From: Clostridia bacterium
GTDB lineage: Bacteria; Bacillota; Clostridia; UMGS1883; UMGS1540
Length of the DNA: 64,000 nt
Direction of reading: 5' to 3'
Assembly: GCA_045533905.1 (NCBI GenBank)
Contig: JAZSIR010000016.1
Span: forward strand, 56,811-120,810
Under the pieces are notes generated by a model that saw nothing but the letters and a program-made list of their open reading frames with translations, was not told the origin of the DNA and ran no database searches. Of the stretch, positions 45,299-64,000 are shown in pieces. Made by a program: the position numbers and the translations under genes. The stretch's first letter is position 1. Each line of letters starts with the position of its first letter.

Positions 45299-45375
45299 CA
45301 AATTGCGGAGCAAAAACCGCATAACTACGCCGTTTTCGGGCATTTTCAAATGAAAATGGCAACGATTTGGCAACA
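45286..45375 (+). repeat. attL: core plus arm-type repeat
   Basis: CGAGTGGGAAT core; TGGCAACGATTTGGCAACA at 45357-45375. Confidence 0.8.
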
Positions 45376-45392
45376 TTAAATACTAAAAATTT

Positions 45393-45424
45393 AGAGCTAA
45401 CTGATTTTGATATCAGTTAGCTCT
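45393..45424. terminator. Bidirectional hairpin
   Basis: AGAGCTAACTGAT-6nt-ATCAGTTAGCTCT; second copy at 47773-47804. Confidence 0.8.
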
Positions 45425-45438
45425 TTATTAATGAGACT

Positions 45439-46185: not shown

Positions 46186-46224
46186 ATATACCACCTCCTA
46201 ATAGTTTATGTAAAATCCGTTAAT

Positions 46225-46761: not shown

Positions 46762-46926
46762 CTCCTCGTAATTTTCCTTATCAATAATATTTTACAACAA
46801 ATATTCAAAAAAATAAAGAGTTTTTGTCAAATTCAGTAGTTTGTTCTTAAAAATTATTGAAAATTGTAGTATAAAGGTGTATAATAGTGTGTATTAGTAA
46901 CGGGAATATTCGAAAGGAGTCGGGAT

Positions 46927-47640: not shown

Positions 47641-47663
47641 ATTGGTTTAAACTGATTATTTTG

Positions 47664-47804
47664 TGGCAACACAGTTATAACATTTATAGAAGTAAAGACC
47701 GCATATAAAAATCGCTTGTAGCACTTTTGGAAGTTGAATGACAACAAATTGGAAACATTTGAATAGAAAAAAAGAGCTAACTGATTATATAATCAGTTAG
47801 CTCT
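47664..47804 (+). repeat. Degenerate internal att site (copy of attL flank)
   Basis: ACCGCATA, TGACAAC..TGGAAACA and the hairpin are colinear with 45316-45424 (offset ~2382). Confidence 0.75.
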
Positions 47805-47813
47805 TTTTTGTGT

Positions 47814-48137
47814 TTATTTTAATTTCAGATATGAAGAATTTAATCTGTCTAAAAATTTTGTTTCCCTCTCTTCGTTTATACTCAACACAGTTAAATCGAC
47901 AGGAAGTTCAAATTCTTTTTCCAATACAGAAGATATTGCAATTAAATCCTGCTGTATTTTATAACTATACTCCGAATAAATTAAAAGAATATCAATGTCA
48001 TTTGGGATAGTGTTATTATTTAACATAGAACCAAACAAATAAACATTATCGAAAGATTTAAATAAGAATATATTTCTTTTAATATACTCGGTTAGATTGT
48101 TAATTCTTGATCTCGTTGATGTATCCATAAAAAGCAT
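47814..48137 (-). CDS. Minimal nucleotidyltransferase (MNT, Pol beta-like)
   Basis: VYLFGS...NDIDILLIY and VDL motifs, ~105 aa. Confidence 0.85.
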   Translation of the reverse strand: MLFMDTSTRSRINNLTEYIKRNIFLFKSFDNVYLFGSMLNNNTIPNDIDILLIYSEYSYKIQQDLIAISSVLEKEFELPVDLTVLSINEERETKFLDRLNSSYLKLK

Positions 48138-49245
48138 CCATGTCCAATAGTTTTACATTAATTTCGTCAGAAAACTCATAAGCTTCTTTCGAAATACTAA
48201 GGTGTCCGTTCCAATTATGTAAATTAACAATGATACAGTTTTCTGATGGCGCTAATTGTGATAGAAAAGCTTTGCTTAGACAGTATTCATAAACAAAAAT
48301 CATATCTGTATTGTTAATGCGAATAGTCCTTAAGTTATTAACATCTAAAAAATTATATTTAATTCTTTTTGATTTAATATATTTTAGGGCGAAATTCAAG
48401 CTATCTAATCGGACATTCCATTTTCTAAAACATTTATAGTCAAAATACATTTGTCTTAGTCTTGGTGTATCACTTAAATAGACTTTTTCTGATGTGCCGG
48501 ATTCATTGATCTTAATATATGGATTATCTATTCCAATAACTATGTTTTCAAATTTACCAGTTTCAGTTAATGTTTCTATCAAAGCCTCTAAAGACTCTGT
48601 AAACGGCAATAGTGAATCATTTACAGGAGATATTCCAAATATTGAATTTATTTCTTCGGGAAAAAGGACATATCGATTTTTTTCTTCATCAAGCCTAGTT
48701 GCTTCAAATTCGTCTATATGCATAATAAAAGTTTGGATATAATGTAAATTTGAATACGATTTTTCAGTATGGCTTTGAAATAAATTCAGGTTGTTTTCCA
48801 ATAATTTTTTTAACTTTTTATTATTAATTAAAATTTTTATTTCAAATTTATTCCAAAGCTCTTTTTGCTCATTTAAATAATAGTTTTCGAATATAGATTT
48901 ATTTTCTAAAAGCAGAGGAAAAACCTCATTTTTTAGTTCTTCAAAAGAGGCAAACTTTTTGCTGAAAAACTTATCTAATTCTTCTTTTCTAACTTGTTTC
49001 CAACTTAAAACTTCCTCTGGAGTAAATTCGTGCAGTTTGTCAAATTTTGTATGACAATTAGGACATAGAACTACCAAATTTTCAAATGTATTATCTGCCG
49101 TTTCACAATAAGGGTCAATATGAGCCTTTTCAATTATATCACCATTGTATTGAAACAATTCAACTTGACATTTGGGATTCATACATCTACCCATTGACTC
49201 AGCATATAATTTTCTTTTTACATTCTCTGTTATTTCTCTACTCAT
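48100..49245 (-). CDS. HNH endonuclease with C-terminal domain of unknown function
   Basis: RCMNPKC..AHI...NLVVLCPNCH zinc-HNH motif. Confidence 0.85.
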   Translation of the reverse strand: MSREITENVKRKLYAESMGRCMNPKCQVELFQYNGDIIEKAHIDPYCETADNTFENLVVLCPNCHTKFDKLHEFTPEEVLSWKQVRKEELDKFFSKKFASFEELKNEVFPLLLENKSIFENYYLNEQKELWNKFEIKILINNKKLKKLLENNLNLFQSHTEKSYSNLHYIQTFIMHIDEFEATRLDEEKNRYVLFPEEINSIFGISPVNDSLLPFTESLEALIETLTETGKFENIVIGIDNPYIKINESGTSEKVYLSDTPRLRQMYFDYKCFRKWNVRLDSLNFALKYIKSKRIKYNFLDVNNLRTIRINNTDMIFVYEYCLSKAFLSQLAPSENCIIVNLHNWNGHLSISKEAYEFSDEINVKLLDMDAFYGYINEIKN

Positions 49246-49266
49246 TTAGGCATCTCCGTTTGTTAG

Positions 49267-49716
49267 TTATTTTGTAGTGCTTTCCGGATAATTATATCTC
49301 CAACTATCGTATTCCTCTTTTGTTATTTCACCATTTCTATATTTACGGGCAACCTTATTCCATGCACGAAGCATATCGTACATAGCAAAATAAGACGAGT
49401 TTTCTCTGTCAAGTGTAAGACAGAATTCATCGTCAAGCATATTAATAGTTAATCCGTATATATCTTCTATCGCAAAAAGGGTATGCAGTACAGCGTTGTA
49501 ATTATCAAGGTCAGGCAGTTTAATTGCTTGCGGTGATACGCCGAATATTTCTGCAATATCCTTAATCATTTCATCTTTAGGTGTTCTTGCACCAATTTCG
49601 TACTGACCTACACGAGTTTCAGCGGTCTTCTCACTAAAACCGAGTTTTAATCCAAGCCATTTTTGCGTAGCTCCATGTAAGTTTCTTATAAATCTTATTC
49701 TTTCTCCAATTGCCAT
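49267..49716 (-). CDS. XRE family repressor
   Basis: IGERI...R....TQ..L.....RVGQYE.G.R.P; divergent from xis-int. Confidence 0.9.
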   Translation of the reverse strand: MAIGERIRFIRNLHGATQKWLGLKLGFSEKTAETRVGQYEIGARTPKDEMIKDIAEIFGVSPQAIKLPDLDNYNAVLHTLFAIEDIYGLTINMLDDEFCLTLDRENSSYFAMYDMLRAWNKVARKYRNGEITKEEYDSWRYNYPESTTK

Positions 49717-49818
49717 TTTATTAGCTCCATTCTTTCTATTGTCGCACTTATTATAACATATTCGTTTGAGTTAGTCAATTACTTCTAATCAATTTGATAA
49801 TAAAATTCCGAAAAACAC

Positions 49819-49877
49819 TTGACATTATCCAAAGAATAATGTATAATGACCTTGACATTAACAAATAAGATAATGTT
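49819..49877 (+). promoter_or_regulatory. xis-int promoter with tandem operator palindromes
   Basis: TTGACA-17bp-TATAAT; ACATTA..TAATGT palindromes occur twice. Confidence 0.7.
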
Positions 49878-50000
49878 ATCACATCAACACAAACCTAATT
49901 AAAGGCGATTAGATATGAAAAAATAATGATAAACAAAATAGGAGCATACAAAATTGTCGAAATGGTTTGGTTGAAATTTATTAAGATTAGGAGGAGAAAC

Positions 50001-50192
50001 ATGGAAAATTTATTTCTAACGGTTGATGAAGTACGGCAAATGCTTGGTGTTTCTAAATCCTATGCTTACAAGGTTATCCGAAAAATGAACTCGGAACTAA
50101 GGCAACAAGGATACCACACAATTGCAGGCAGAGTCAGCAAAACATACTTTCTTGAGAAAGTAAAATATCAAAAATTAGAAAGGAGTAAATAA
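50001..50192 (+). CDS. Excisionase-like HTH protein
   Basis: LTVDEV..MLGVSKS.AY..IR..N.EL; directly upstream of integrase; AGGAGG RBS. Confidence 0.8.
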   Translation: MENLFLTVDEVRQMLGVSKSYAYKVIRKMNSELRQQGYHTIAGRVSKTYFLEKVKYQKLERSK

Positions 50193-50193
50193 T

Positions 50194-51270
50194 ATGGCTA
50201 TTTACAAAGACGGTGAAAATTGGAGAGCGGTGTATCGTTACACTGACTGGACAGGAGAAAGAAAACAGACACAAAAACGAGGATTTAAAACCAAGCGTGA
50301 AGCTCAGGCTTGGGAGCGTGAACAGCTTATCAAAGCGAAAGCAGATATTGATATGACTTTCAGTAGCTTTGTTGAGCTTTACAGAACAGATTTGGGCATG
50401 CGTATTAAAGAACACACTTGGAAAACAAAGGACAGCATTATTGAAAAGAAACTGCTCCCTTATTTCGGGAAGAAAAGGTTATCGGAAATTCAGCCAAAGG
50501 ATATTATTGCTTGGCAGAATGAGATGATAAATTACCGTGATGAAAACGGAAAACCTTTTTCTCCGGTGTATCTTAAAACACTTCATAATCAGCTTAGTGC
50601 AATCCTAAATCATGCAGTAAGATTTTATGGGCTTTCGTGTAACCCTGCCGCCAAAGTCGGCAATATGGGAAAGGCAAAAAGCAAGGAAAAGCCGTTTTGG
50701 ACAAAAGAGGAGTATTTCAAATTCATTGATGAAATGATGGATAAACCATTATCATATTATGCCTTTGAAACTCTTTATTGGACAGGCATAAGACTTGGCG
50801 AATTGTTAGCATTAACACCATCGGATTTTGATTTTGAAAAGAAAACATTATCTGTATCGAAGTCATATCAAAGATTCGGTGGCAAAGATGTGGTAACTCC
50901 TCCCAAGACGGAAAACAGTATCAGAGTGATAAATATTCCTGATTTTCTCTGCGAAGAAATTCAAGAGTATTTAGATAGCTTATATGGTATTAAACCCAAC
51001 GACAGAATGTTTGTTGTAACAAAAAGCTATTTGCATCACGAAATGAACAGAGGTTCAAAAGCTGCAGGAGTAAAACGAATACCTATTCATTCCTTAAGGC
51101 ATAGCCACATTTCACATCTTATCGAATTGGGATTCTCGGCGGTAGCAATTGCCAAAAGAGTGGGACACCAGAGCATAGATATTACATATAATTATGCGCA
51201 TATGTTCCCATCTACTCAGGTTGAAATGGCAAATAAATTGGAAAATGAAAGAGGTGAATTACTTGGATAA
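50194..51270 (+). CDS. int: Tyrosine integrase (Tn916/ICEBs1-like)
   Basis: Arm-binding N-terminus (KRGFKTKREA); TGIRLGE, K, HSLRH, GH, Y catalytic set. Confidence 0.96.
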   Translation: MAIYKDGENWRAVYRYTDWTGERKQTQKRGFKTKREAQAWEREQLIKAKADIDMTFSSFVELYRTDLGMRIKEHTWKTKDSIIEKKLLPYFGKKRLSEIQPKDIIAWQNEMINYRDENGKPFSPVYLKTLHNQLSAILNHAVRFYGLSCNPAAKVGNMGKAKSKEKPFWTKEEYFKFIDEMMDKPLSYYAFETLYWTGIRLGELLALTPSDFDFEKKTLSVSKSYQRFGGKDVVTPPKTENSIRVINIPDFLCEEIQEYLDSLYGIKPNDRMFVVTKSYLHHEMNRGSKAAGVKRIPIHSLRHSHISHLIELGFSAVAIAKRVGHQSIDITYNYAHMFPSTQVEMANKLENERGELLG

Positions 51271-51589
51271 GAAATTGGATGCAAAAGGCAGATGGCGAAA
51301 CAAGGCTTCATCGTTTATGATGTCACCTGAAGAATGGAAAGATTTAGACACTCGTGTAAGATTATCAGGGCTTACAAAACAGGAATATATGATAAGACGT
51401 TTACTTGAACGTGATGTAGTTGTTCAGCCAAACACACGAGTGTTTAAGGCACTTAGGAACCAAATGACCGAAATCTTAACTGAACTCAGGCGTATTGAAA
51501 ACGGTGCAAATGTTGATGATGAACTTCTTGCTACAATAAAAACTGTTGCAGAAACATACAACGGTCTTGAAGAAAAGAAAAAGTCCTAA
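51263..51589 (+). CDS. MobC-like ribbon-helix-helix protein
   Basis: F.MSPEE...L..RV.LSGLTKQEY; TTG start after GAGGTG. Confidence 0.7.
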   Translation: MDKKLDAKGRWRNKASSFMMSPEEWKDLDTRVRLSGLTKQEYMIRRLLERDVVVQPNTRVFKALRNQMTEILTELRRIENGANVDDELLATIKTVAETYNGLEEKKKS

Positions 51590-51694
51590 AGTATCGGCAA
51601 ATACCTTAGGACAAGGAATGTGGTAAGAACCACACACCCAACAATGGTATTTTACCACATTCCTATTGATTTTTCAATAGGGAGGTGACGAAAA

Positions 51695-52642
51695 ATGTCG
51701 AATTTGAAGCTGATAAATATGGAAGATGTCGAAGTTGAAGAAGTGAAATGGCTGATTTATCCCTTCATTCCATACGGAAAGATAACAATAATTCAGGGCG
51801 ATCCCGGTGAAGGTAAGACAACTCTTGTGCTTCAGATTATCGCAAGACTCACTAAAGGTGAAAGCATTGTAAATGAAGAAGCGAAAGAGCCGATAAATGT
51901 TATCTATCAAACGGCAGAAGATGGATTGGCGGATACAATCAAACCTCGTCTGTTATCGGCTGATGCAGATTGTTCAAAGGTGCTTGTAATTGATGATAAA
52001 GACACACCGCTTACAATGCGTGATGTAAGACTCGAACAAGCTATTATTGAAACAAATGCAAAGCTTGTTGTTTTAGATCCCATTCAGGGATTTTTGGGTG
52101 CTGATGTTGATATGCACAGAGCTAATGAAATCAGACCTGTTATGAAACATATTGCCGAACTTGCAGAGAAATATAAATGTGCAATTATCTTAATCGGGCA
52201 TATGAATAAAAGCAGTATGGGTAAATCGGCATACAGAGGTTTGGGTTCCATTGACTTTCAGGCGGCAGCAAGAAGCGTGCTGATTGTTGGCAGAATTAAA
52301 GATGAGCCTGAAATTAGAGTTGTATGTCAAACTAAAAGTTCACTTGCACCCGAAGCAAAATCTCTTGCTTTCAGACTAAGCGAGGAAAATGGCTTTGAGT
52401 GGATAGGTGAATATGATGTTACCGCAGATGAATTACTTTCGGGAACTGCTAAAGGTGCGAAGAAACAAGTAGCGATAGAGTTCCTTGAAAATATTCTTGC
52501 TAACGGACCGATGCCACATACAGAGATTACAGAACTTGCAAAGCAAAAAGGTATTGCAGATAGAACCTTAAGGAATGCCAAAGATGAATTAGGGGTTAAA
52601 TCGAAACGAGCAAATAATCAATGGTATTGGAGCCTTGATTAA
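51695..52642 (+). CDS. AAA_25 / RecA-like ATPase (IME replication protein)
   Basis: WL..P.IP.GK, GDPGEGKT, LDPIQ, GS.DF.AAARS; C-terminal wHTH. Confidence 0.85.
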   Translation: MSNLKLINMEDVEVEEVKWLIYPFIPYGKITIIQGDPGEGKTTLVLQIIARLTKGESIVNEEAKEPINVIYQTAEDGLADTIKPRLLSADADCSKVLVIDDKDTPLTMRDVRLEQAIIETNAKLVVLDPIQGFLGADVDMHRANEIRPVMKHIAELAEKYKCAIILIGHMNKSSMGKSAYRGLGSIDFQAAARSVLIVGRIKDEPEIRVVCQTKSSLAPEAKSLAFRLSEENGFEWIGEYDVTADELLSGTAKGAKKQVAIEFLENILANGPMPHTEITELAKQKGIADRTLRNAKDELGVKSKRANNQWYWSLD

Positions 52643-52712
52643 AAGTAAGTTGGCAAGATGACCTAATCTATAGAAAGGGGCATCTTGCCAACTTGAAAGG
52701 ATGTGATAGGAT

Positions 52713-52970
52713 ATGAAGAAAATTCAAATCGAGCAAGAACTATTTATTCAAATAGTGAAATACTTTTATAGCGATGAATTTGGTTTTGATGATGACGATG
52801 TATGTGAGTTATATCACGACATTAAAAAAGGAATTGATAAAAAACTTGATGCCGTTTCAAGGCGAAGTTATTACACTCAATATAAAACTGCAGACACACC
52901 AGAGGAACGTGAAAAAGCAAGGCTGAAGTATCTTGATGCGGTAGGAATGCACGAAGATTTCAGATTTTAA
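52713..52970 (+). CDS. Conserved small IME hypothetical protein
   Basis: RBS; YTQYKTA.T.EERE.AR..YLD..G motif recurrent in such elements. Confidence 0.7.
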   Translation: MKKIQIEQELFIQIVKYFYSDEFGFDDDDVCELYHDIKKGIDKKLDAVSRRSYYTQYKTADTPEEREKARLKYLDAVGMHEDFRF

Positions 52971-53043
52971 TTTTACCTTAATTGCATAAACGGGAATGTG
53001 CCACATTCCCGTCAAGGTTACTAAAGGAAAGGAGATTTTTACA

Positions 53044-53400
53044 ATGAAAGAAAGATTTATGGAAAACGGAATTGAGTATGTAAGATGCGGAAATTATTAC
53101 ATACCAAACTTGACGGTGCCGGAGTGTAAGCGCGAAATAGGCAAGTACGGAAGGTTAAGAAGAAAGCATTTGAAATCAAGCAAACCTTGTCAGTATAGCA
53201 CACTTTTGATGACCGGAAAACTGTTTGAGCATCTGCACGAAATTGACATTCAGGCGCAAGAAATCTTAGACCAATTTATCAAAAAGGCTGAGAAAACTGC
53301 TCCTGATAAAGCGACTCAGCAGATGGCGTGGGTTGGTCATATGAACAACGCAAAGGCGTGTGCAGAGGAAATTATCTTAAGCGAGATAATTTATATTTAA
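53044..53400 (+). CDS. tnpV: TnpV family protein
   Basis: G..Y...G.YYIPNL......IGKYGR.R..L; W...MNN....AEEI. Confidence 0.85.
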   Translation: MKERFMENGIEYVRCGNYYIPNLTVPECKREIGKYGRLRRKHLKSSKPCQYSTLLMTGKLFEHLHEIDIQAQEILDQFIKKAEKTAPDKATQQMAWVGHMNNAKACAEEIILSEIIYI

Positions 53401-53486
53401 TGTTGTAACAAGCACTGAATTTGGCATTACAAATTCGATTTTTAAGGGATACCCCTAACACCCCAAACCCGAAAGGAGGCGGCAAG

Positions 53487-53855
53487 ATGCGCAACAGAAC
53501 AAAGACTTTTTCTGCAAGGCTAAGTGAGCAGGAATATGAAACCTTGAACAAGTCAATAGCAAAAACAGGTCTTACAAAATCGGCTTTTATACGAACCGTT
53601 GCAAGAGGATATTTACCCAAACCACGACCACCAAACGGCTATGATGAAATGATGTCAGAGCTTACCGAAATCGGCACTAATCTTTATGATATTTGTAGGG
53701 TGGCATCTGATACGAACAAAATTGACACCACTCTGCTTAAGGAACAAGCAGAGAAATTGGATAAGGTGATTTTACAAATCAATACCTTCTATACTGTTCC
53801 CGACAAAATCAAAGGAGGCGATATAAAATGGCAACAACAAAAATATGGGACATAA
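53487..53855 (+). CDS. mobC: Relaxosome accessory protein MobC
   Basis: RLSEQE...L......GL..S..IR; L..IG.NL..I; overlaps relaxase. Confidence 0.85.
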   Translation: MRNRTKTFSARLSEQEYETLNKSIAKTGLTKSAFIRTVARGYLPKPRPPNGYDEMMSELTEIGTNLYDICRVASDTNKIDTTLLKEQAEKLDKVILQINTFYTVPDKIKGGDIKWQQQKYGT

Positions 53856-55159
53856 AAGGCAGAATTGATAGCCTGATAAACTATGCTGCCAATCCCGAAA
53901 AAACGGACGGAAATAAATATAGTGAAAAGCAAATACAAGCTCTCCACGATGTTATGGACTATGCCTCCGATGATTATAAGACAGAGCGAAGCTTATATGT
54001 ATCGGGTGTTAATACAACGCCCGATACGGCAAAGCAAAAGATGCACCAAACAAAGCTCCGTTATGGTAAGACGGATGGAATTGTAGCATTTCACGCCATA
54101 CAGAGTTTCAAACCGGGAGAGGTTACACCTGAAATAGCTCATGAAATCGGGAAAAGACTTGCAAAAGAAATGTGGGGCGATAGCTTTGAGGTAGTAATTG
54201 CAACACACCTGAATAAAAAACACCTGCATAATCACTTTGTAATTAACTCTGTATCATTTGCAGACGGCAAGAAATATTATGACAATACCGCAAATTATAA
54301 CCTCATTAAAAAGATTTCTGATAGGCTATGTGAGGAATATAATCTGTCAGTAATACGAAATCCTAAAAGCAAGGGTAAGCATTATGCCGAGTGGTACGCT
54401 GAGAAAAGCGGCTATCCAACGATACGAGGTCAGATAAGGGATGAGATTGATACCATTATTCAATGTTCATATACTTATCAAAGCTTTTGGACGGAACTCA
54501 AACGCAGAGGATATGAGGTTAAGGATACAGGAAAATACATAGCATTAAAACCAACATTCTCTGAAAAATATATCCGCCTTAAATCTCTAGGTGAAAATTA
54601 TAGTCCTGAAGCAATTAAAGAGCGTATTATTAGGGCAAGAAACGGTATTAGAGATTTGTCTGTACCTAAACCTGACTACAATGCTTGGCTCAAAAAATAT
54701 GAACCAATAAAGCTCAAAGGCTTCAAGGCTCTGTACTATCACTACTTATATCTGTTTGGGAAGATACGTAAAAAGGAACCACCGCAAAGAGTATGCTTTT
54801 ATTTGAGAGAAGAACTTATAAAATTCGAGCGATACCAAAAGCAGTTTCATTTTCTTTACGACAATGATATTGAAACCTCTTTTCAACTTCTTGAAATAAA
54901 GCAATCAGCCGAAGATAGAATTTCCGAACTGACATTAGAACGGTCAAGATTATACCACAAGCCTGATGCTAAAGGCGAAATCGCAGATATAAATACCGTG
55001 CTGAAGGAACTGCGAGCGAAGGTAAGAATGTGCAACAATATTTTGATTGATTCGGAGCGTATCAACAAAAAGTATAACGAAGCACAAAGACTTGAACAAG
55101 AAGCTGTGACACCCCAAAAACACAAGAAAAAAGATAAAGATGAAGAAATTACACGATAG
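53828..55159 (+). CDS. Relaxase (MOBP family)
   Basis: MATTKIW, Y..NP.KT, H..QSF.PGEVTPE.AH.IG, THL...HLHNH..INSVS. Confidence 0.93.
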   Translation: MATTKIWDIKGRIDSLINYAANPEKTDGNKYSEKQIQALHDVMDYASDDYKTERSLYVSGVNTTPDTAKQKMHQTKLRYGKTDGIVAFHAIQSFKPGEVTPEIAHEIGKRLAKEMWGDSFEVVIATHLNKKHLHNHFVINSVSFADGKKYYDNTANYNLIKKISDRLCEEYNLSVIRNPKSKGKHYAEWYAEKSGYPTIRGQIRDEIDTIIQCSYTYQSFWTELKRRGYEVKDTGKYIALKPTFSEKYIRLKSLGENYSPEAIKERIIRARNGIRDLSVPKPDYNAWLKKYEPIKLKGFKALYYHYLYLFGKIRKKEPPQRVCFYLREELIKFERYQKQFHFLYDNDIETSFQLLEIKQSAEDRISELTLERSRLYHKPDAKGEIADINTVLKELRAKVRMCNNILIDSERINKKYNEAQRLEQEAVTPQKHKKKDKDEEITR

Positions 55160-55202
55160 GATGTTATTTGCGATATGAACTTATGATTCGAATCTTGATT
55201 GC

Positions 55203-55392
55203 AGAATCGTGAAAATCACGATTCAAGAAATGTGAAAATCACATTCAAAGAATTTTCTTATTCGCAGTTCAAACGAAGTAACTATCGCTAAGAAAGTGAT
55301 TTTGGACTCACGAATCAAGAAGTGTGAAAATCACATTTTAAGAATAGTGAAAATCACTATTCAGGACAAGTGAATTTAACGAATCAAGAATC
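55203..55392. repeat. 23-bp-period palindromic array (consensus AGAAnnGTGAAAATCACnnTTCA)
   Basis: GTGAAAATCAC at 55209, 55232, 55324 and 55347, with degenerate units in phase at 55255, 55278, 55301 and 55370. Confidence 0.85.
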
Positions 55393-55415
55393 TCAAAAGA
55401 TATTAGGAGGAATTT

Positions 55416-55973
55416 ATGAAAACTATAAAAGCTATTATAATCTTAACTTTTGTAAGTGTTTTTACCACAACCACATATGCAGCAGAGGTGCCGAGAGAAT
55501 CGGCACCATGCAATGCCACAAATGAAGCGATAGTCGTTGTCGAAAGCTTTATAGGCGATATTTTGAACGAAGTACAGAGCGGATTAGGATATGCCGATGC
55601 AAGAGCAAAATCAAACCGCATATTCTTCAATGCTTGGCTCAACGGACAGACAAACGGTTACAGTTACGGGGAACTTGTAGATATAGCCAATAATGCAATA
55701 TGGCAATATCGGGATATGTACCTTCGACCTGATTTTTACGCAAATAATCTTGAAAAAGTCAGAGTAATAATTGCTCCTGTAATTGAAGATTATAAATCCG
55801 GCAAAATCTCTTATGCAGAAGCGGAATTCAATGCCCGAAATAGGATTTATCAATCCGTCAAACCTGACTTTAATCCCGATGTGGAATATATGAAAGATCC
55901 TCTCTCTAGGGATATTCCACCGGTGGATAACAGCTTGTTTATACTTGCAAGAAAACTGATATTAGGGCTATGA
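55416..55973 (+). CDS. Secreted hypothetical protein
   Basis: AGGAGG RBS, signal peptide ending TYA-A, followed by terminator. Confidence 0.8.
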   Translation: MKTIKAIIILTFVSVFTTTTYAAEVPRESAPCNATNEAIVVVESFIGDILNEVQSGLGYADARAKSNRIFFNAWLNGQTNGYSYGELVDIANNAIWQYRDMYLRPDFYANNLEKVRVIIAPVIEDYKSGKISYAEAEFNARNRIYQSVKPDFNPDVEYMKDPLSRDIPPVDNSLFILARKLILGL

Positions 55974-55982
55974 AAAATTACA

Positions 55983-56013
55983 GAAGGCGTGACTGCGGTC
56001 ACGCCTTCGTTTT
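55983..56013. terminator. Bidirectional hairpin
   Basis: GAAGGCGTGAC-tgcg-GTCACGCCTTC. Confidence 0.75.
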
Positions 56014-56037
56014 GTGTGCGATATAAATACTTGGTAG

Positions 56038-56917
56038 TTACTTTTCGTTTACTGCAATCCAAATTTCACAAGTATAATCAGGATCATCTACTTTGTCCGA
56101 GGGATATACCTCTAATTCTACTCCGTGTGCATATTCATACTTGTCGCTCTGAGGGAAAAATTCCGAACAGATTTTCTTATAGGTTTCAACGAATGCTTCC
56201 GGCATTTTGCCCTTACAGGTAAAAACTGCAAATGTATGAGCAGGGATTTCGATTATATCAAGTTCAGAATCAACATTTTCCTGACCTTCATATTCAAAAC
56301 CTATACCATAAGGAAAATGATTGTCAGCTAAACTGCTTGTAAAGCATATTCCTAAAAGTCCGCCAAAAGCAGAGTTTTGAGGCATATATTTCATTATTTT
56401 TGCCATTGAACCATTTTGTCCGCACTCAGCCCAAAACTCTCTTATATCTGTAGCTGCAACATCACTACCCGGTTTTTCTACTTGTTTTCTTTTGCATACA
56501 ACCTTGAATGCATCTTTTTTCTCAATTCTGTAATTCATAAGATTACCTCCAGATAAAATTAGTTTTACGGAAAGCCTCGAAAATGCTGTGATTGTAGCAC
56601 CGCTTCGCACTTCTGTAGGAGTAACCCCGTGGAATTTAGAAAATGCACGGGTAAAACTTTCGGGACTGTCATACCCATAATCAAGAGCGATATCAATTAT
56701 TTTTTTTATCGGTATTCATAATTTCCTGAGCCGCAAGGGTGAGCCTTCTCATGCGGATATAATCTCCTAGAGTTATACCGCACATAATTCCAAAAATTCT
56801 TTGAAAATGAAATGCAGACGAACAGGCCTCCTTCGCTACCTTTTCATAATCAATTTTTTCGGTTATGTGCTCCTCAACATAGTCAATAGCTTTTTGCAAG
56901 CTGCTAATCCAATTCAT
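56038..56917 (-). pseudogene. AraC/Rob-like regulator with GyrI-like domain, frameshifted in an A8 run
   Basis: MNW...IDYVEEH start and GYDSPESFTRAF join in frame if one A is removed at 56700-56707. Confidence 0.88.
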
Positions 56918-57194
56918 ATTCTCTGCCTCCTTCCGATGATACTACTTTATCAGAAATTAATACATTAATCTTGATGCTATATGCTTTTGGGTGTTAAGGA
57001 TAAAAGAAAAAGCCTCAGAAATCGCTTAGTTGCTAGGGCTTGATGGTTTGGTAAAATTATAACACATATTGCTCGAAATTACAATGTAAAGTGACTTTCC
57101 GCAGTAGTAAGGCTTCTTTTTAGGCTAGTTTCTTGAAAAATACACTTTTTTATGGTAAAATAACTCTATAAATAAGAATTTGACGGAGCATATA

Positions 57195-57755
57195 ATGGGA
57201 AAGAAATTATCAGAAATGAGTTTAGAAGAACTTTGGTTGTTGTTTCCAATCTTCTTAGAAGAACATAAAGATTGTTGGAAAGAATGGTATTGTGAAGAAG
57301 AATGTCTATTGAAAAATGTATTTTCTTTAGGTGAAAGAATCAGCCATATTGGAAGCACCGCTATTCCTTATATTTGGGCAAAACCCATTGTAGATATTCT
57401 TGTGGAGATTCCAAAGGGGAGAAATTTGCTTGATTACAAAGCGGAGATAATAAATTGCGGTTATATTTGTATGTCGCAAAGTGAGAACGGTATGTCTTTT
57501 AATAAAGGATATACAGAGAATGGATTTGCTGAGAGAGTGTTCCATTTGCATTTGAGATGTGCGGGCGATAACGATGAATTGTACTTTAGGGATTACCTCA
57601 TTGAGCATCCAAATGTTGCAAAGATATACGAGAAATTGAAATTGGGACTGTGGAAAGAATACGAACATAATAGAGATGGATATACAAATGCCAAAACCGA
57701 ATTCGTACAAAAACACACCCAAAAAGCAAAAATGATATACGGCAACCGATATTAA
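57195..57755 (+). CDS. GrpB family (nucleotidyltransferase-like) protein
   Basis: HIGSTAIP...AKPIVDI, FRDYL..HP, Y..AK..F. Confidence 0.9.
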   Translation: MGKKLSEMSLEELWLLFPIFLEEHKDCWKEWYCEEECLLKNVFSLGERISHIGSTAIPYIWAKPIVDILVEIPKGRNLLDYKAEIINCGYICMSQSENGMSFNKGYTENGFAERVFHLHLRCAGDNDELYFRDYLIEHPNVAKIYEKLKLGLWKEYEHNRDGYTNAKTEFVQKHTQKAKMIYGNRY

Positions 57756-57874
57756 CAAATTCCAAAATATAAAACGAAAAGACCCGTTAAATTATAAATA
57801 AAATTCATAAGACTTTACTTGCTTCATCACCAATGAAACAATACAAATTCATTGAAACAAAGGAGTGATAAAAT

Positions 57875-58297
57875 GTGAAAAAGCTAAAATGGTATGGGGT
57901 TGTTTTTTCATTATTTATATTATTTTTATATATAATGGGGACTTATGATATCTTTATGATGCTATCTCATAATGTGAATTATTATAATAGCAAAGGATAT
58001 GGAGAAATAGTAGTAAATTATTTTACAAATTATCCAGTATATTTACTTGTTTTTTGGATTAGTAACTTGCTATGTGGTTTATTAAGTCCAATAATGTATT
58101 TAGTAAAAAATAAAAATTCATATAAAATTGCAATAATTTCATTTATAAGTGATTTTATATTAATATTATTGGGTGTGATTTTTAGAAACAGAATAAATGC
58201 ATTGGGTTTAAATATATTTTACTTTGACCTATTTATATTAATTATTACATTGTTATTTGGAATATATTTATATTTTTCAAATAAAAACGAGAAATAA
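57875..58297 (+). CDS. Hypothetical membrane protein (4 TM)
   Basis: Very AT-rich hydrophobic ORF with AAGGAG RBS. Confidence 0.75.
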   Translation: MKKLKWYGVVFSLFILFLYIMGTYDIFMMLSHNVNYYNSKGYGEIVVNYFTNYPVYLLVFWISNLLCGLLSPIMYLVKNKNSYKIAIISFISDFILILLGVIFRNRINALGLNIFYFDLFILIITLLFGIYLYFSNKNEK

Positions 58298-58367
58298 ATT
58301 CCAATAAGTCGAACAGTTAGATAAATAAGAATTTATGTGACACGAACCAATATTTTTCAAAAATCTA

Positions 58368-58398
58368 TTGACTCTCACGCTCCGTCATAGTGTATACT
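58368..58398 (+). promoter_or_regulatory. MerR-type promoter (19-bp spacer)
   Basis: TTGACT-19bp-TATACT immediately upstream of the MerR gene. Confidence 0.75.
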
Positions 58399-58424
58399 CT
58401 CCTTGTGAGGTGATAAAATTGAAA

Positions 58425-59147
58425 ATGAAGATTAAAGAATTTGCCGAATTTACGGGTGTAAGTGTGCGCACACTGCATTATTACGATGAAATAGGATTGT
58501 TGACCCCAGCCTTCGTTGACAGGTCTACAGGCTATCGTTTTTACGACGAAAATTCTCTTCTTCGTACGCAAGAGATTCTCTTTTACCGTGAACTTGACTT
58601 TTCCTTAAAAAACATCGAGGAGATTTTGTCATCCCCGAATTATGATAAAAACAAGGCGCTGAAAGAGCAAAAACACCTGCTCACACTCAAAAAAGAGCGG
58701 TTAGAACGGTTAATTTCCGCCATTGACGGTGCCGTGAAAGGAGAAAATGTTATGAAAGCATTTGACAACAGCGAATTTGAAAAGCATAAGGCTGAAGCCA
58801 AAGAAAAATGGGGCAAAACAGACGCATACAAGGAACACGCAGAACGGAGCAAGAATTACTCCAAGCAGAAGTGGAATGACCTTGCCGATGGAATGGACCA
58901 CATCATGGCAGAGTTTGCGGTGTGCATGAGAAAGGTCGAAAGGCCTGATTCCGCCGAGGCACAGAACCTTGTGAAAATGCTGCAAAACCATATTACTGAG
59001 AATTACTATATTTGCACAAACGAAATCCTAGCAGGTCTCGGTCAGATGTATGTTGCAGATGAACGCTTTAAGAACAACATCGACAAGCACGCTGATGGTA
59101 CTGCAACATTTATCTGTGAAGCAATTCAAGTCTACTGCCGCAAGTAA
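58425..59147 (+). CDS. MerR family regulator with TipAS domain (Mta-like)
   Basis: GVSVRTLHYYDEIGLL..GYRFY; LGQMYVADERF. Confidence 0.93.
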   Translation: MKIKEFAEFTGVSVRTLHYYDEIGLLTPAFVDRSTGYRFYDENSLLRTQEILFYRELDFSLKNIEEILSSPNYDKNKALKEQKHLLTLKKERLERLISAIDGAVKGENVMKAFDNSEFEKHKAEAKEKWGKTDAYKEHAERSKNYSKQKWNDLADGMDHIMAEFAVCMRKVERPDSAEAQNLVKMLQNHITENYYICTNEILAGLGQMYVADERFKNNIDKHADGTATFICEAIQVYCRK

Positions 59148-59169
59148 ATTCCAATTTGTAGGTGAACGG

Positions 59170-59667
59170 ATGAAAAAATATATTGCAAATATAATATCAA
59201 GTTGCAGAATTTTATTTAGTTTATGTCTGTTGTTCTGTCCCGCATTTTCAGTTAGTTTTTACAGCATATATATATTATGCGGATTGGCTGATATGGTGGA
59301 CGGGACTGTTGCAAGAAAGACAAGTGCTGTCAGTGAATTTGGAGCAAGGCTCGATACTGTTGCTGATTTTCTTTTCTTTGCAGTATCATCGATTAAATTG
59401 TTGCCTATAATTCATATTCCAAAATGGATATGGGTATGGATAGTTATAATTACAATTATTAAAATCTGTAATATTATATTGGGTTTTATTTATAAGAAAA
59501 AGTTAATCTCTTTGCATACCGTGATGAATAAAATAACGGGATTGTTATTATTCCTTTTGCCGTTGACATTACAGTTTGTGGAAATGAAATACAGTTCCAT
59601 AGCAGTATGCATTGTTGCAATATTCTCGGCAATTCAGGAAGGATATTTGATAATAAAAGAACGCTAA
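59170..59667 (+). CDS. CDP-alcohol phosphatidyltransferase family protein
   Basis: DMVDG.VAR......FGA.LD..AD. Confidence 0.9.
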   Translation: MKKYIANIISSCRILFSLCLLFCPAFSVSFYSIYILCGLADMVDGTVARKTSAVSEFGARLDTVADFLFFAVSSIKLLPIIHIPKWIWVWIVIITIIKICNIILGFIYKKKLISLHTVMNKITGLLLFLLPLTLQFVEMKYSSIAVCIVAIFSAIQEGYLIIKER

Positions 59668-59762
59668 TTTTTTAAAAATTTACAGATAAATTTAATAGCA
59701 ACAACGAGTTGCTTGTTTACTTTGTATTCTCACAGTATAATAAATAGTGAGGTGATAGTTTT

Positions 59763-60527
59763 ATGGAAACAAAAGATATTATAGTGGAATTAAGAACTAA
59801 AAAAGGACTTTCACAGGAAGCACTTGCAGAAAAGATATTTGTAACAAGACAGGCAGTTTCCCGTTGGGAAACGGGAGAAACAGTGCCAAACACCGAAACT
59901 CTCAAATTATTATCAAAACTGTTTGATGTATCTATCAATACACTTCTCGGTTCTCCAAGAGAACTTATTTGTCAATGTTGCGGTATGCCTTTAGAAGATT
60001 CTAACATTAGTAAAGAAACAGACGGATTCTTTAATGAAGAATACTGCAAATGGTGTTATGCGGACGGAGAATATATGTATCACGATATGGATGATTTGAT
60101 TGATGTTTGTGTTAAATATATGGCAAATGAAGAACGTTCGGAGGAAGAAGTGCGTTCCTATTTGAAGGAAACTATTCCAAAACTTGATTATTGGAAAAGA
60201 TATAAAAAACTTGGCGGTGATGGTGCTTTTGAAGAGTTTAAAAAGCTTTTGATTGCGGAAATCAATGAGCTAAACATTGAAGGAATGCCAAAGCTTCAAA
60301 AGCTTAATGCTCTCGTTGGCGGATATGTAAATCTTGAATATAGGCTTCCGAACGGAAAAAGTGTGAAGTTCTTAGATGACGGAGCCACCTATTTAGGCAA
60401 TCAGTTGGAATGTGAGTTCGGAGGAAATAGGTGTTTTGGCATAGTATGTAATATGGATTTTATTCTTGTAACTACTTATGAGGAAAATGGCGAAAATCCC
60501 GAATTGGTTATATACAAAAAGAGATAG
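59763..60527 (+). CDS. XRE regulator with zinc-ribbon and C-terminal domain
   Basis: SQE.LA....VTRQAVSRWE; CQCCGMP...YCKWC; operator AGCAAC-N5-GTTGCT at 59697-59713. Confidence 0.88.
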   Translation: METKDIIVELRTKKGLSQEALAEKIFVTRQAVSRWETGETVPNTETLKLLSKLFDVSINTLLGSPRELICQCCGMPLEDSNISKETDGFFNEEYCKWCYADGEYMYHDMDDLIDVCVKYMANEERSEEEVRSYLKETIPKLDYWKRYKKLGGDGAFEEFKKLLIAEINELNIEGMPKLQKLNALVGGYVNLEYRLPNGKSVKFLDDGATYLGNQLECEFGGNRCFGIVCNMDFILVTTYEENGENPELVIYKKR

Positions 60528-60568
60528 TATTCTATTACAGATAGCAAATACAAGAAAGAGCGTGCATT

Positions 60569-61174
60569 ATGGAATTTAATGAAAAATTACAGGAATTGAG
60601 AAAAAATAAAGGGCTTACTCAGGAAGAACTTGCAGAGGCTCTCTATGTGTCCAGAACAGCAATTTCCAAGTGGGAATCAGGCAGAGGATATCCGAGTATA
60701 GATTCCCTTAAGGAAATAGCAAAGTATTTTTCGGTAACAATAGATGAACTATTGTCAACTGATGAAGTGCTGACTATAGCGGAAAAAGATAATAAGCAAA
60801 AAGAAATGCATTTTAGAAGTATGCTTTTCGGACTTTTGGATATAAGCATTCTGATGTTCTTCTTCCTGCCGTTCTTCGGACAAAAAGCAAATGGTGTCAT
60901 TCAGGAAGTTTCGCTTTTATCCTTAAACGGAATTGAGAATTATTTGAGGACTGTGTACTATGCTATTGTAATCGCAATTATAGTATATGGCATTTTGACA
61001 CTTGCTTTTCAAAATTGTCAAAAGATATTTTGGGTGCAAAACAGAGATAAAATATCGCTTATATTAAATGCAGCAGCGGTACTCTTATTTATTATAAGTT
61101 CTCAGGTCTATGCAGGAGCTTTCCTATTTATATTTCTGACAATAAAGGCGTTAATGCTTATAAAATGGCGATGA
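60569..61174 (+). CDS. XRE regulator with membrane C-terminus
   Basis: TQEELA..LYVSRTAISKWESG plus 4 TM. Confidence 0.88.
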   Translation: MEFNEKLQELRKNKGLTQEELAEALYVSRTAISKWESGRGYPSIDSLKEIAKYFSVTIDELLSTDEVLTIAEKDNKQKEMHFRSMLFGLLDISILMFFFLPFFGQKANGVIQEVSLLSLNGIENYLRTVYYAIVIAIIVYGILTLAFQNCQKIFWVQNRDKISLILNAAAVLLFIISSQVYAGAFLFIFLTIKALMLIKWR

Positions 61175-61272
61175 CACGGAAAGTATCACGGATGTGACGG
61201 TACGATTCTTGAGGTTTTTGACGCCTTCCTATAAAGTGTATTCAGGCGGAAGCTGAATACAAATCAGGAAGG

Positions 61273-62553
61273 TTGATAAAAATGAAAAGAAAAAGTTTTT
61301 ACATTGGGTTAGGGTTACTTGTGTTATTCATTGTTTGGACAGTAGCTCTTCGGTTCGTTGATGTGGGAGCAATCGGACCGCAAGGTTCAAGCGTTGGCTT
61401 TGCATCACTTAACAAAATGATTCACAACATCACAGGAGTGCATATGTCACTCTATACCATTACGGATTGGCTTGGGCTTGTTCCAATTTGCTTTATAATG
61501 GGATTTGGAATACTTGGACTCTGCGAGTGGATTAAAAGAAAAAATCTTTTTAAGGTCGATTACAGCATCCTCACGCTTGGCGGATTTTATATTGTTGTGA
61601 TGGCATTGTACATTTTCTTTGAAATGTTCGTTGTAAATTACAGACCAATACTTATAAACGGAATTTTAGAAGCATCATATCCTTCATCAACGACTATGCT
61701 CGTAATGTGTGTTATGCCAACTGCTATAATGCAGTTTAATGCACGCATCAAAAATAGAGAACTTAAGAAATGTGTGAACATTCTTATGCTTTCATTTATT
61801 GCTTTTATGGTAATAGGCAGACTTATTTCAGGCGTGCATTGGCTTTCGGATATTATCGGCGGTGCAATGCTCAGTAGCGGTCTTGTGCTAATATATCATT
61901 CTATACAATTATCAGGAGAAAAAGAAATGATTAAAGATAACTATATTATTCGATTAGAAAGAAAAGAAGATTACCCTGTGGTAGAAAACTTGATCCGTGA
62001 GGCGTTTTGGAATGTGTACCGTCCTGGATGTCTTGAACACTATCTCATAACGAAGTTAAGAGAGCATCCTGACTTTGTCAAGGAACTTGATTTTGTTATG
62101 GAAAAAGATGGGCAAATCATCGGGCAGAATGTATTTGTGAAAGCAAATATTAAGGCTGATGACGGAAGAAATATTCCAATTCTGACAATGGGACCTATTT
62201 GCATAACCCCTGAACTCAAAAGACAAGGATATGGTAAAATTCTGCTTGATTATTCAATCGAGAAAGCAACAGAATTTGGCTATGGTGCAGTGTGCTTTGA
62301 AGGTAATATTGACTTCTACGGAAAGAGTGGATTCACCTTTGCAAGTGAATTTGGACTTCGTTATCACGGACTACCCGAAGATGTGGATGCATCATTCTTC
62401 TTATGCAAAGAGTTAATACCCGGATATTTAAGCGGTATCACGGGAGAATACGGACCACCCGAAGTATATCTTTTCCCCGAGGAAGAAGCAGAAGAATTTG
62501 ATAAAAAATTCCCTTATAAAGAAAAACTGAAACTTCCGGGACAACTTTTCTAA
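61273..62553 (+). CDS. PAP2 phosphatase - GNAT acetyltransferase fusion
   Basis: RP...SYPSS..GRLISGVHW.SDI (PAP2) then EAFWNVYRPG..EH, GPI.I.P...RQG.G (GNAT). Confidence 0.85.
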   Translation: MIKMKRKSFYIGLGLLVLFIVWTVALRFVDVGAIGPQGSSVGFASLNKMIHNITGVHMSLYTITDWLGLVPICFIMGFGILGLCEWIKRKNLFKVDYSILTLGGFYIVVMALYIFFEMFVVNYRPILINGILEASYPSSTTMLVMCVMPTAIMQFNARIKNRELKKCVNILMLSFIAFMVIGRLISGVHWLSDIIGGAMLSSGLVLIYHSIQLSGEKEMIKDNYIIRLERKEDYPVVENLIREAFWNVYRPGCLEHYLITKLREHPDFVKELDFVMEKDGQIIGQNVFVKANIKADDGRNIPILTMGPICITPELKRQGYGKILLDYSIEKATEFGYGAVCFEGNIDFYGKSGFTFASEFGLRYHGLPEDVDASFFLCKELIPGYLSGITGEYGPPEVYLFPEEEAEEFDKKFPYKEKLKLPGQLF

Positions 62554-62561
62554 ATGCAAAT

Positions 62562-62596
62562 GGGCGGCACTTCGTTTGAGGTGCCGCCTAAAATTT
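62562..62596 (+). terminator. Terminator after cargo run
   Basis: GGCGGCACTTC-gttt-GAGGTGCCGCC. Confidence 0.65.
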
Positions 62597-62809
62597 TGCA
62601 TATAACTAATAAATTGTATATGTGAAAAGATGGTGAAGTTATAAGAGGTAAAGGGTTAAAGCGTTATTAGGGAGTTTTAATGTGTTTTTTATTTGTGTGT
62701 TGGTTTGTATTTTCTTGTACATAAAACAAGAAATTCTTGTAATCTTGTAAAAATATATTGACAAAACGGGAAAAATGTGGTAATATAACTTTTGAAAGGA
62801 GCTGATTGT

Positions 62810-63727
62810 ATGGCTACAAGCTCAAGAATACAAGAAAAAATATTGGAACTCTTATCTGACGAACAGCAACATAGTGTTCAGGATATGAAAAAATACTTAT
62901 CAGATGTCGGACTTGATGATTATACCGAAGGACAATTTGCCGGTTCGGTAAATACAATGGTTAAAAACGGTTCAATCATAAAAGTTGACAGAGGTATATA
63001 CTCTAAAGGGACAAGGGGTGTTAATATGAAAAAATGTTTTGTGGTTTCTCCCATAGGAGAAGAAGGAAGCGATACAAGGAATAATGCGGACAAGCTTTTT
63101 AAGTATATTATTAAGCCTGTATGTGATGAGTGTGATTTTGAAGCAATAAGAGTTGATAAACTCAATGATGCCAACTCTATTACACAAACAATTATTGACC
63201 ATCTCGAAAGCTCAGAATTAGTCATCGCTGATATTAGTGAACATAATCCAAACGTATTTTTTGAGATGGGATATAGAACAAGAACAAAGAAACCCATTAT
63301 ACACTTAAAAGGGAAAGGCGAAAATCTCCCATTTGATGTCACGACAATTCGTACTCTTGAATATGATTTGACCGATTTGGATAGTGTCGAAGAGGTGAAA
63401 AATCGTTTAACCAAAACGATCGAGTCATTTAATTACTCTGAAAGCACAGAAACATCAGTTGCAGAAGAACCGACAGAAAGTGCATCGCCTGCTATTATGC
63501 CAGTTTTGTATCAGATTTTAGATTCTATTAGTGATGTTAAAAATGAAATCAAGAGTATAAATACGGAAACAATCGGTACCGTTATTAAAAGTATGCAGAA
63601 TACTCAACCTCAAATGTCACAAGACACAGCACTTCAGATGCAGCTGATCAGCGGATTAATGCAAAACCCTGATAGCTTTATGAAATTAATAGAGTTTTCT
63701 GAGAAATTACCAAAGGGAAGAAAATAA
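62810..63727 (+). CDS. wHTH + nucleoside 2-deoxyribosyltransferase/TIR-like protein
   Basis: CFVVSPIG...R.D...I...I.....LVIAD.S..NPNVF.E.G......PFDV...RT..Y; N-terminal wHTH ending RGIY; own TTGACA-17bp-TAATAT promoter. Confidence 0.75.
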   Translation: MATSSRIQEKILELLSDEQQHSVQDMKKYLSDVGLDDYTEGQFAGSVNTMVKNGSIIKVDRGIYSKGTRGVNMKKCFVVSPIGEEGSDTRNNADKLFKYIIKPVCDECDFEAIRVDKLNDANSITQTIIDHLESSELVIADISEHNPNVFFEMGYRTRTKKPIIHLKGKGENLPFDVTTIRTLEYDLTDLDSVEEVKNRLTKTIESFNYSESTETSVAEEPTESASPAIMPVLYQILDSISDVKNEIKSINTETIGTVIKSMQNTQPQMSQDTALQMQLISGLMQNPDSFMKLIEFSEKLPKGRK

Positions 63728-63741
63728 TTAGTAGAGAATGT

Positions 63742-63870
63742 TGGCAACAATATGGCAACAAAATATTGAAAAGTCAAAAGAATTATGGTAATATATAGAA
63801 TGTGACCACTACGAAACACGATTTATTAGCTTATTCAGTTGAGGTTATAAAACCATGAGCGAGTGGGAAT
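63742..63870 (+). repeat. attR: arm repeat plus core
   Basis: TGGCAACAATATGGCAACA at 63742-63760; CGAGTGGGAAT followed by AA, regenerating the guaA end. Confidence 0.8.
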
Positions 63871-63919
63871 AAATTTCGCGAAAGACAACCCATACAACTA
63901 AATACATTCACACAAAGTG

Positions 63920-64000
63920 TCGGGTATGCCGCAAGGCTTTGGCAAGGCGTATCCGGTGAAAAGGGAATGGGGTGAGAATCCCCTGCGGTTAAACTGTCGG
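63920..64000 (+). ncRNA. Probable cobalamin riboswitch, 5' part (truncated by window)
   Basis: AAAAGGGAA-TGG-GGTGAGAATCC-CC-TGCGG matches the B12-element core. Confidence 0.5.

Follow-up and report, generated by a model that had tools for sequence, protein, structure and literature searches.

A two-armed, probably dif-like site bounds exchangeable gene cassettes in gut Clostridia

What are the short palindromes that stand between accessory genes in a mobile element of the Clostridia, and do genes change places at them? The question is raised by one stretch of 64,000 nucleotides (the window; positions 56811-120810 of contig C13 in genome G000), in which an earlier note, made from the letters alone, had described a cassette-like run of seven genes with a recurrent 14-bp motif at their junctions. 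The six motif strings that it listed were all found where it had placed them, and its seven open reading frames (ORFs) and their Pfam identities were correct. In our interpretation, the motif forms the centre of a two-armed site (12-6-12) flanking cassettes that gut Clostridia can exchange; the site is likely dif-like and worked in trans by a single XerS/XerH-like tyrosine recombinase. We put the probability of this interpretation at about 60%. Each cassette lies between a site before the start of its gene (L) and a site on its stop codon (R). Numbered labels stand for genomes (G, with G000 being this host), contigs (C), loci (L), families (f) and public runs (X).

Sites were scored with a matrix trained on 84 sites outside the window, taken from loci fetched by protein or DNA. 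The training set includes relatives of the MerR cassette, which raises the scores of sites in the window. The run comprises these features:

57161-57190 (core 57168-57183), + strand: L-type site, spacer TAAGAA, flanked by a -10-like element and the ribosome site of grpB; 16.6 bits
57195-57755, + strand: grpB cassette gene (PF04229), with other neighbours in L093 and L311
57755-57770, + strand: R-type site on the grpB stop, spacer TTCCAA, right arm lost; 8.5 bits
57766-57864, + strand: 99-bp replacement of 9 bp present in the intact junction of near-identical DNA (runs X1 and X3)
57875-58297, + strand: AT-rich orphan cassette gene for a four-transmembrane (4-TM) protein; stop overlaps an R site
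58294-58336, + strand: R site, 11-nt linker and L site, back to back (27-bp period); R at 58294, 14.7 bits; L at 58321, 22.5 bits
58337-59147 (ORF 58419-59147), + strand: MerR-TipAS cassette with its own promoter/operator
59144-59159, + strand: R-type site common to the MerR stop and the next ribosome site; 23.2 bits
59170-59667, + strand: CDP-alcohol phosphatidyltransferase gene; left border at a site, right border eroded
59763-62553, + strand: multi-gene block of XRE-Zn ribbon, XRE-TM and PAP2-GNAT genes; no intact sites inside; left end next to R sites in relatives

The motif is more frequent here than in shuffled DNA, a comparison on which the earlier note had let its proposal stand or fall: four sites of at least 12 bits were found in 57100-62700, compared to a mean of 0.2 and a maximum of 2 in 40 dinucleotide shuffles. 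No site reached 10 bits in positions 1-57100 of the window. Genome-wide, 17 sites scored at least 12 bits, and most of those outside the four best look like chance. The four best (21.9-23.2 bits) lie in this window and around a solo methyltransferase cassette on C11. This second cassette, which carries a 216-aa methyltransferase gene between L and R at C11:89208-89898, is also present in G013, G373, L097 and L308.

Four strong sites and one truncated site bound the grpB, 4-TM, MerR-TipAS and CDP-alcohol transferase genes. The truncated site, at 57755, scores 8.5 bits because its right arm has been replaced; in the near-identical DNA of runs X1 and X3 the grpB R site is intact, and position 57765 is joined to 57865 with 9 letters between, reaching the ribosome site of the 4-TM gene. 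The product of the 4-TM gene had no Pfam or NCBIfam match. A “partial” motif reported at 57844 scores -2 bits and is no site. The spacer of the head-to-head pair, previously given as 9 nt, is actually 12 nt between the 14-mers at 58295 and 58321 and 11 nt between the 16-bp cores, and the pair (58294-58336) is read as enclosing an empty “outer-arm” mini-module. The proposal of seven independent cassettes is not supported; here the first four genes alone are bounded by sites. The junctions at 59.7-62.5 kb score -9 to -20 on the matrix and are not sites, and the order XRE-Zn, XRE-TM, PAP2-GNAT is kept in relatives without intact sites between the genes. The PAP2-GNAT gene (61273-62553) is a fusion; it is also fused in L109 and occurs as two separate genes in L095 and L098.

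Exchange of cassettes at the sites

The suggestion that the motif marks the borders of exchangeable cassettes was borne out by homology breaks, by a phage slot and by reordered modules. Whether homology breaks at the motif and neighbours vary had been proposed as a check: of 84 distinct homology ends in 57000-59700, 60 lie no more than 12 nt from a site, in zones that make up 6.9% of the region, a count that is confounded by gene ends because stop codons lie inside R sites; neighbours do vary. Free of this confounding are the distribution of sites around MerR-TipAS, the reordering and indel of modules, the prophage slot and the transposon frame described below.

The L site of the MerR-TipAS cassette lies ~30 nt upstream of its promoter, and homology extends up to the L site. 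At the other end, 14 different right partners were found among 15 sites. In a comparison of 54 of 80 loci, picked by identity and coverage, loci of at least 82% amino acid identity had a site at 19 of 29 ends and at 13 of 21 starts, compared to 2 of 22 ends and 3 of 17 starts below 82%. Judged from these loci, the sites mark a mobile lineage of MerR-TipAS.

Homology to the grpB cassettes of G013 and G187 begins at the L site at 57168. G047 has a different order, XRE-Zn, MerR, XRE-TM, PAP2, with an L site at the joint of XRE-Zn and MerR, and a single GNAT cassette, cleanly present or absent between two sites, distinguishes L095 and L098. The CDP-alcohol transferase gene that follows a single R at 59144 in the window is preceded in L094 by an R-linker-L pair. 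Among public runs, which are metagenome contigs whose short sides are weak, one joint runs from 58334 to the start of XRE-TM; joints from 57765 to 59170 have a side of 20 letters and are weak. A go-back joint in run X7, from 59125 to 58297, can be read as a MerR end with R-mini-L behind it and does not speak for a circle.

A slot between two tail genes of a gut prophage is missing in 28 of 80 loci and filled in 52. In 43 of the 52 filled slots, scored on one representative per group, L stands at a fixed place behind a promoter, and what follows it was read as 13 different cargos; most closed slots end with R and a terminator. Spacers in the slot are uniform, with L being TCGGAA-like and R TTCCAG-like throughout. 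The cassette-side arms in this slot are degenerate while TTCC and GGAATTT are kept, as would be expected if the sites were short conserved linkers, with the cassettes swapped by short-homology recombination (phage annealing proteins, RecA) and the palindrome kept for another purpose, such as protein binding. Some junction deletions also run through linker microhomology (L311 compared to L094), and no enzyme is linked to the arrays. We consider this explanation unlikely, given that it leaves unexplained the two inverted, spacer-coded classes of site, the fixed 27-bp empty module, the solo cassettes with both sites in unrelated places, and the likeness to palindromes linked to xer genes.

G013 and G257 share a platform with terminal inverted repeats and 8-bp target site duplications, with different cassettes between L and R. 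This element (L093 and L090; G013:C51 and G257:C5) lacks a transposase and consists of terminal repeats, 8-bp target duplications, a promoter, an L/R slot and a terminator; we take it to be IS1595-like. Each gene has L and R in inverted orientation at its two sides, and some cassettes stand alone, so the sites might themselves be the terminal inverted repeats of miniature transposons, with a transposase in trans. This is highly improbable: the sites are not flanked by target duplications, neighbouring genes have single sites in common, one consensus describes both arms of every site and, where a transposon frame exists, the frame lies outside the sites. As read from homologous loci, cassettes have been replaced, inserted and reordered, with the change inside the sites.

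Arms and spacers of the site

The site is longer than the 14 bp with a 2-bp centre described earlier. It is ~30 bp, with two arms of ~12 bp around a 6-bp spacer: (C)AGTT(A/C)GAYAAA-N6-TTTRTC(G/T)AAC(T), with the core RYAAA-N6-TTTRT. Arms and spacer of these lengths suggest a tyrosine (Xer-type) enzyme rather than a 2-bp-core enzyme. The R spacer TTCCAA is found in 39 of 73 sites following stops, while the L spacer before starts is TAAGAA (23 of 48) or the reverse complement of the R class (xxGGAA). The outward-facing arm is conserved; the gene-facing arm merges with the stop codon or ribosome site yet keeps the motif. Inner arms score 0.8 on the outer-arm matrix, compared to -5.4 for random sequence, which is to say that one motif stands on both sides; L and R are therefore the same site in opposite orientations. 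Among 91 ORFs flanked on both sides, a few of them spurious, 62 are arranged as L..R.

The R-linker-L unit was found in 7 of 401 genomes of the class (8 matches) and in none of the controls. A stricter head-to-head pattern matched 29 GTDB loci, mostly in Bacillota and between a stop and a ribosome site, with ~5 chance matches outside Bacillota, and matched no viral loci. The exact two-arm consensus had 3 matches in viral contigs, none of which is clearly a cassette site. The single 14-mer was only modestly above control over 301 class genomes. High 14-mer counts in G214 and G135 were due to unrelated repeats, and an association with repetitive extragenic palindromes (REP) and REP-associated tyrosine transposases (RAYT) was seen in one genome only. 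G074 (L074-L080) has a repeated ~130-bp right-hand platform behind R sites, in filled and empty versions, beside RAYT-like fragments. Promoter and terminator elements were read by eye.

Junctions between genes retain one whole R or one whole L spacer. Half-and-half spacers were absent from 442 sites (0/442) in loci partly fetched with these spacers, and from 151 (0/151) in loci fetched by protein or DNA, and a blunt central crossover was rejected for lack of hybrids. Judged by the junctions, whole spacers are more readily explained by a staggered 6-bp exchange than by a central crossover that is blunt or 2 bp wide, although some pairs fit a central crossover. A map of crossovers, position by position, resolved them to the 16-bp core only and is dominated by MerR pairs.

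This resolution is compatible with action at the central dinucleotide by a large serine recombinase of the prophages or integrative and conjugative elements (ICEs) that carry three recombinases. Such genes often lie within 1-5 kb of sites, and G000 has a triplet on C11. We consider this quite improbable. In none of 54 triplet loci did the 420 nt past the last gene contain a strong site (10 bits or more), and the hypothesis is not supported; weak L-like sites at ~+110 occur only before the mef(A) leader (7 loci). Attachment sites of large serine recombinases share a central dinucleotide and are tied to an element with the recombinase. Here, the centres of L and R differ (AG, GG or TG compared to CC) and vary, junctions retain whole spacers rather than central hybrids, and the same cassettes are carried by elements that have a tyrosine integrase or lack a recombinase. 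The mef-lnu block is also found behind rlmD without a triplet (L022).

The layout of stop, site and ribosome site and the types of cargo are integron-like, which raises the alternative that R-linker-L acts as an attC-like single-strand hairpin for an undiscovered integron-type integrase. Some pairs do fold (L018, z scores -3.3 and -3.9; L021, z score -8.7), but the pair in the window (z scores -1.0 and +0.15) and the commonest variant (z score ~+1) do not, L or R sites standing alone also form cassette borders, and a hairpin is lacking in the phage slot. The ends have no GTT/AAC boxes, and no IntI was found: scores on the integron-integrase model were at most 101.5, compared to a cut-off of 265, in the 4 of 5 G000 tyrosine recombinases scanned (the one on C20 was left out). 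These results agree with the earlier view that this is not a classical attC/IntI integron, and a hairpin-based system is very unlikely.

For the dif-like site that we favor, steps of exchange can be proposed from the rules of dif modules. In the passages of PMC13141974 on Acinetobacter Rep_3/OrfX plasmids, like spacers recombine, module pairs excise and single modules are replaced through cointegrates. By analogy, we infer that like spacers would pair in Clostridia, L with L and R with R, as in these pdif modules. A double crossover, L x L and R x R, would swap the gene behind a fixed promoter and keep its direction. A crossover of L x L or R x R could move a gene together with an empty mini-module, giving arrays of gene-R-mini-L-gene, and occasional R x L loss of the mini-module would leave one whole spacer between two genes, as at 59144.

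A candidate link to Xer and dif

In G000, a near-perfect 13-6-13 palindrome lies just upstream of a conserved 323-aa xer gene (C14:26270-26320; L315 and L429) and is conserved across Clostridia. In close relatives it reads CAATTAGACAAAA-TAAAAA-TTTTGTCTAATTG, from which G000 differs by one base. We regard it as the candidate dif of this genome. A single-Xer dif is recognized as one palindrome next to xer or at a skew switch, and the chromosomal palindrome is of this kind. Of 88 Clostridial xer-family genes, 59 have a 13-6-13 AAA-N6-TTT palindrome upstream (11 or more of the 13 positions pair in 51 of them), compared to 0 of 520 control windows; its arms vary by lineage, and one (L467) has the spacer TAAGAA. 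As far as sequence goes, the cassette site shares the AAA-N6-TTT frame with these palindromes.

The likeness is closest in certain lineages. A single palindrome with cassette arms, located in core DNA, and a single XerS-like gene were found in each of five f13 genomes. In f9, which falls in the same Xer clade as f13 (100% support by the Shimodaira-Hasegawa-like approximate likelihood ratio test in a quick tree), AGATAAA-TAACTA-TTTATCT lies directly upstream of xer. These two families hold the best-matching Xer clade, which has a top score of 176.9 bits on the XerS model, below the cut-off of 267. The f13 palindrome of G236 is 71 bp from the cumulative GC-skew maximum. A search of 301 genomes of the phylum with the 28-bp consensus gave 2 matches, one of which is a palindrome 25 bp upstream of a xer gene. 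Cassette arms closely match the palindromes of f13 and G112, L arms match the left arm of difH as quoted in PMC5357621 (AGTTATGAAAA), and the host palindrome agrees with the cassette arm at 10 of 11 positions if shifted by one base.

Several results weigh against our interpretation. Breakpoints on the downstream side fall on stop codons, at which homology fades in any case, many inner arms are degenerate, and no circle joints at sites were found among the joints listed in 8 public runs (contigs only). The cassette arm matrix gives -20 for the candidate dif of the host itself, and likewise for most difs of the C14 type. R-mini-L arrays occur in six other families and in 0 of 12 f13 and 0 of 14 f9 genomes. 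The f13 palindromes were found using the cassette consensus, which in itself accounts for part of their high score, and no such palindrome was found in 5 further f13 genomes. In G449 and G283 the skew extreme is ~10 kb away from the palindrome, and a second skew switch is present on the G236 contig. Two-arm patterns match controls about as often as real sequence. No chromosomal-type Xer gene was found near arrays in the loci scanned, and the upstream palindrome of a mobile Xer paralogue in G126, considered as the cognate enzyme, differs from the cassette site.

The absence of a dedicated recombinase beside the sites, as first reported, was supported in the loci scanned. The one Xer gene seen near such sites, outside those loci, is the G126 paralogue (C52, L502; 311 aa), which is present in two copies with one next to cassette-like sites. 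Its family is large in metagenomes. Array-like sites of at least 14 bits adjoining xer genes were not found, nor was f13-type Xer in viral contigs. In G408 (C1:4367, L559) an integrase gene ends ~120 bp from a candidate dif, possibly an element inserted at dif.

The results for and against a link to Xer therefore make the enzyme family likely, with several candidates for the cognate member. The cognate enzyme could be a loosely specific host Xer, the Xer of an earlier host of the element, or a mobile paralogue. With odds slightly short of even, the cassettes may represent an undescribed, class-wide gene-capture system derived from one-enzyme Xer/dif, in which a pair of inverted dif-like sites, addressed by their spacers, would make genes into promoter-ready cassettes for a housekeeping recombinase to load into phage slots, integrative mobilizable elements (IMEs), ICEs and transposons.

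Carriers, cargo and comparison with known systems

The assembly of G000 is 1.57 Mb with ~50% GC, its cargo and relatives suggest gut Clostridia, and GC in the window falls to 27-40% between 45 kb and its end. To judge from its genes, this low-GC island is an IME, and the seven genes described here are its cargo. The carrier in G000 and one cassette arrangement seen in other genomes are:

45299-63760, no strand: carrier, a low-GC integrative mobilizable element at the guaA 3' end; right end approximate
L015, L019, L022-L024, L026, L037, L039 and L042: lnu(D)-like gene followed by an R-L pair

The island encodes a tyrosine integrase (50194-51270), a relaxase (53828-55159), AAA_25, TnpV and two NikA-like proteins. 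TGGCAAC repeats near both ends (45330-45350 and 63740-63762) are probably arm sites of the integrase. An AraC/GyrI-like regulator (56038-56917, - strand) is split into two ORFs at a homopolymer run, by an assembly slip or as a pseudogene; it is intact (292 aa) in L094. At 47814-49245 (- strand), an HNH nuclease gene overlaps a small nucleotidyltransferase gene, with weak PADLOC matches; this is a possible defence or toxin-antitoxin pair. Near the right end of the carrier, 62792-63727 encodes a winged-helix and nucleoside-deoxyribosyltransferase/TIR-like protein (PADLOC TIR effector, E value 2.5e-16), possibly a defence gene. The last 100 bases of the window resemble a cut cobalamin riboswitch; an Rfam scan of 45000-64000 gave no match. 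No plasmid in PLSDB contains the region, and plasmid and phage collections gave single-gene fragments only.

Cassette carriers include prophages, IMEs, ICEs, a small transposon and chromosomes. The 91 doubly flanked ORFs fall into 54 families, and the 43 cargo products scanned include 10 GNATs, 4 methyltransferases, 2 NUDIX, 2 EamA and 2 CAT proteins. The NCBIfam cut-off was passed by catA (L371) and aac(6') group E (L314), with an lnu(D)-like gene (L073) just under. The combination of an lnu(D)-like gene and a following R-L pair is spread over nine genomes, ranging from Herbinix to Exiguobacterium and Aerococcus. In L019, L022, L037 and L042 this gene is the last of a mef(A)-ABC-F-vat block, and in L019, L037 and L042 the block starts at an L-like site. 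The site can serve as a marker when searching for members of a large pool of shared accessory genes, resistance genes included, with 54 families in a small sample, and it offers a rule for the turnover of phage moron slots and mobile-element cargo. If a gene-capture system of the kind proposed exists, it would be one route for catA, aac(6'), lnu and mef genes into mobile elements.

In integrons, a promoter is followed by compact, co-oriented single-gene cassettes with a site on the stop codon. Like integrons and clusters of attC sites lacking integron integrases (CALINs), the Clostridial cassettes follow a promoter-then-cassette layout and carry GNATs, methyltransferases, NUDIX, CAT and AAC(6') proteins. 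Unlike them, the Clostridial system has two inverted sites per cassette, no attC boxes (R''/R'), no general hairpin and no IntI.

A dif site that adjoins its xer gene is described for difSL-xerS in the portions of PMC1914069 and PMC5357621 that we cite. As in XerS/difSL and XerH/difH, the Clostridial palindrome lies next to a xer gene and has A-tract/T-tract arms. As presented in those portions, difSL and difH are single chromosomal sites for dimer resolution, with no mention of use in cassettes, and, unlike them, the Clostridial palindromes are near-perfect dyads. Firmicutes dif sites were predicted from a Bacillus subtilis profile by Kono 2011 (PMC3025954), the main text of which reports failure in two Clostridium genomes. 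A literature search (full text, with few subscription journals, and leaving out the supplements of Kono 2011, which possibly list such palindromes) found no such cassettes and no xer-adjacent symmetric dif in Clostridia. The site also gives the gene pool a probable link to a Clostridial one-enzyme Xer/dif system, on which that search gave no paper.

The closest parallel is with the Acinetobacter pdif modules, as described in the passages of PMC13141974. In both systems, genes lie between inversely oriented two-armed sites with a 6-bp spacer, and module types alternate and include a module without an ORF. Both show replacement of single modules with like spacers at left and right, eroded sites that leave fused multi-gene modules, resistance cargo and no recombinase of their own. 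The Clostridial cassettes differ in their hosts, which are Gram-positive bacteria of the gut, and in their carriers, which are prophages, IMEs, ICEs, a small transposon and chromosomes rather than one plasmid family. Their arms share one AAA-N6-TTT-type consensus, whereas pdif sites have distinct XerC and XerD arms, and they have two dominant spacer classes that are tied to gene direction, overlap stops and ribosome sites, and have a putative enzyme. The cassettes appear to work like the Acinetobacter dif modules but are not members of that group, since they have no distinct C and D arms and are found on other carriers. The proposed capture system, if real, would be the Gram-positive equivalent of integrons as well as of pdif modules.

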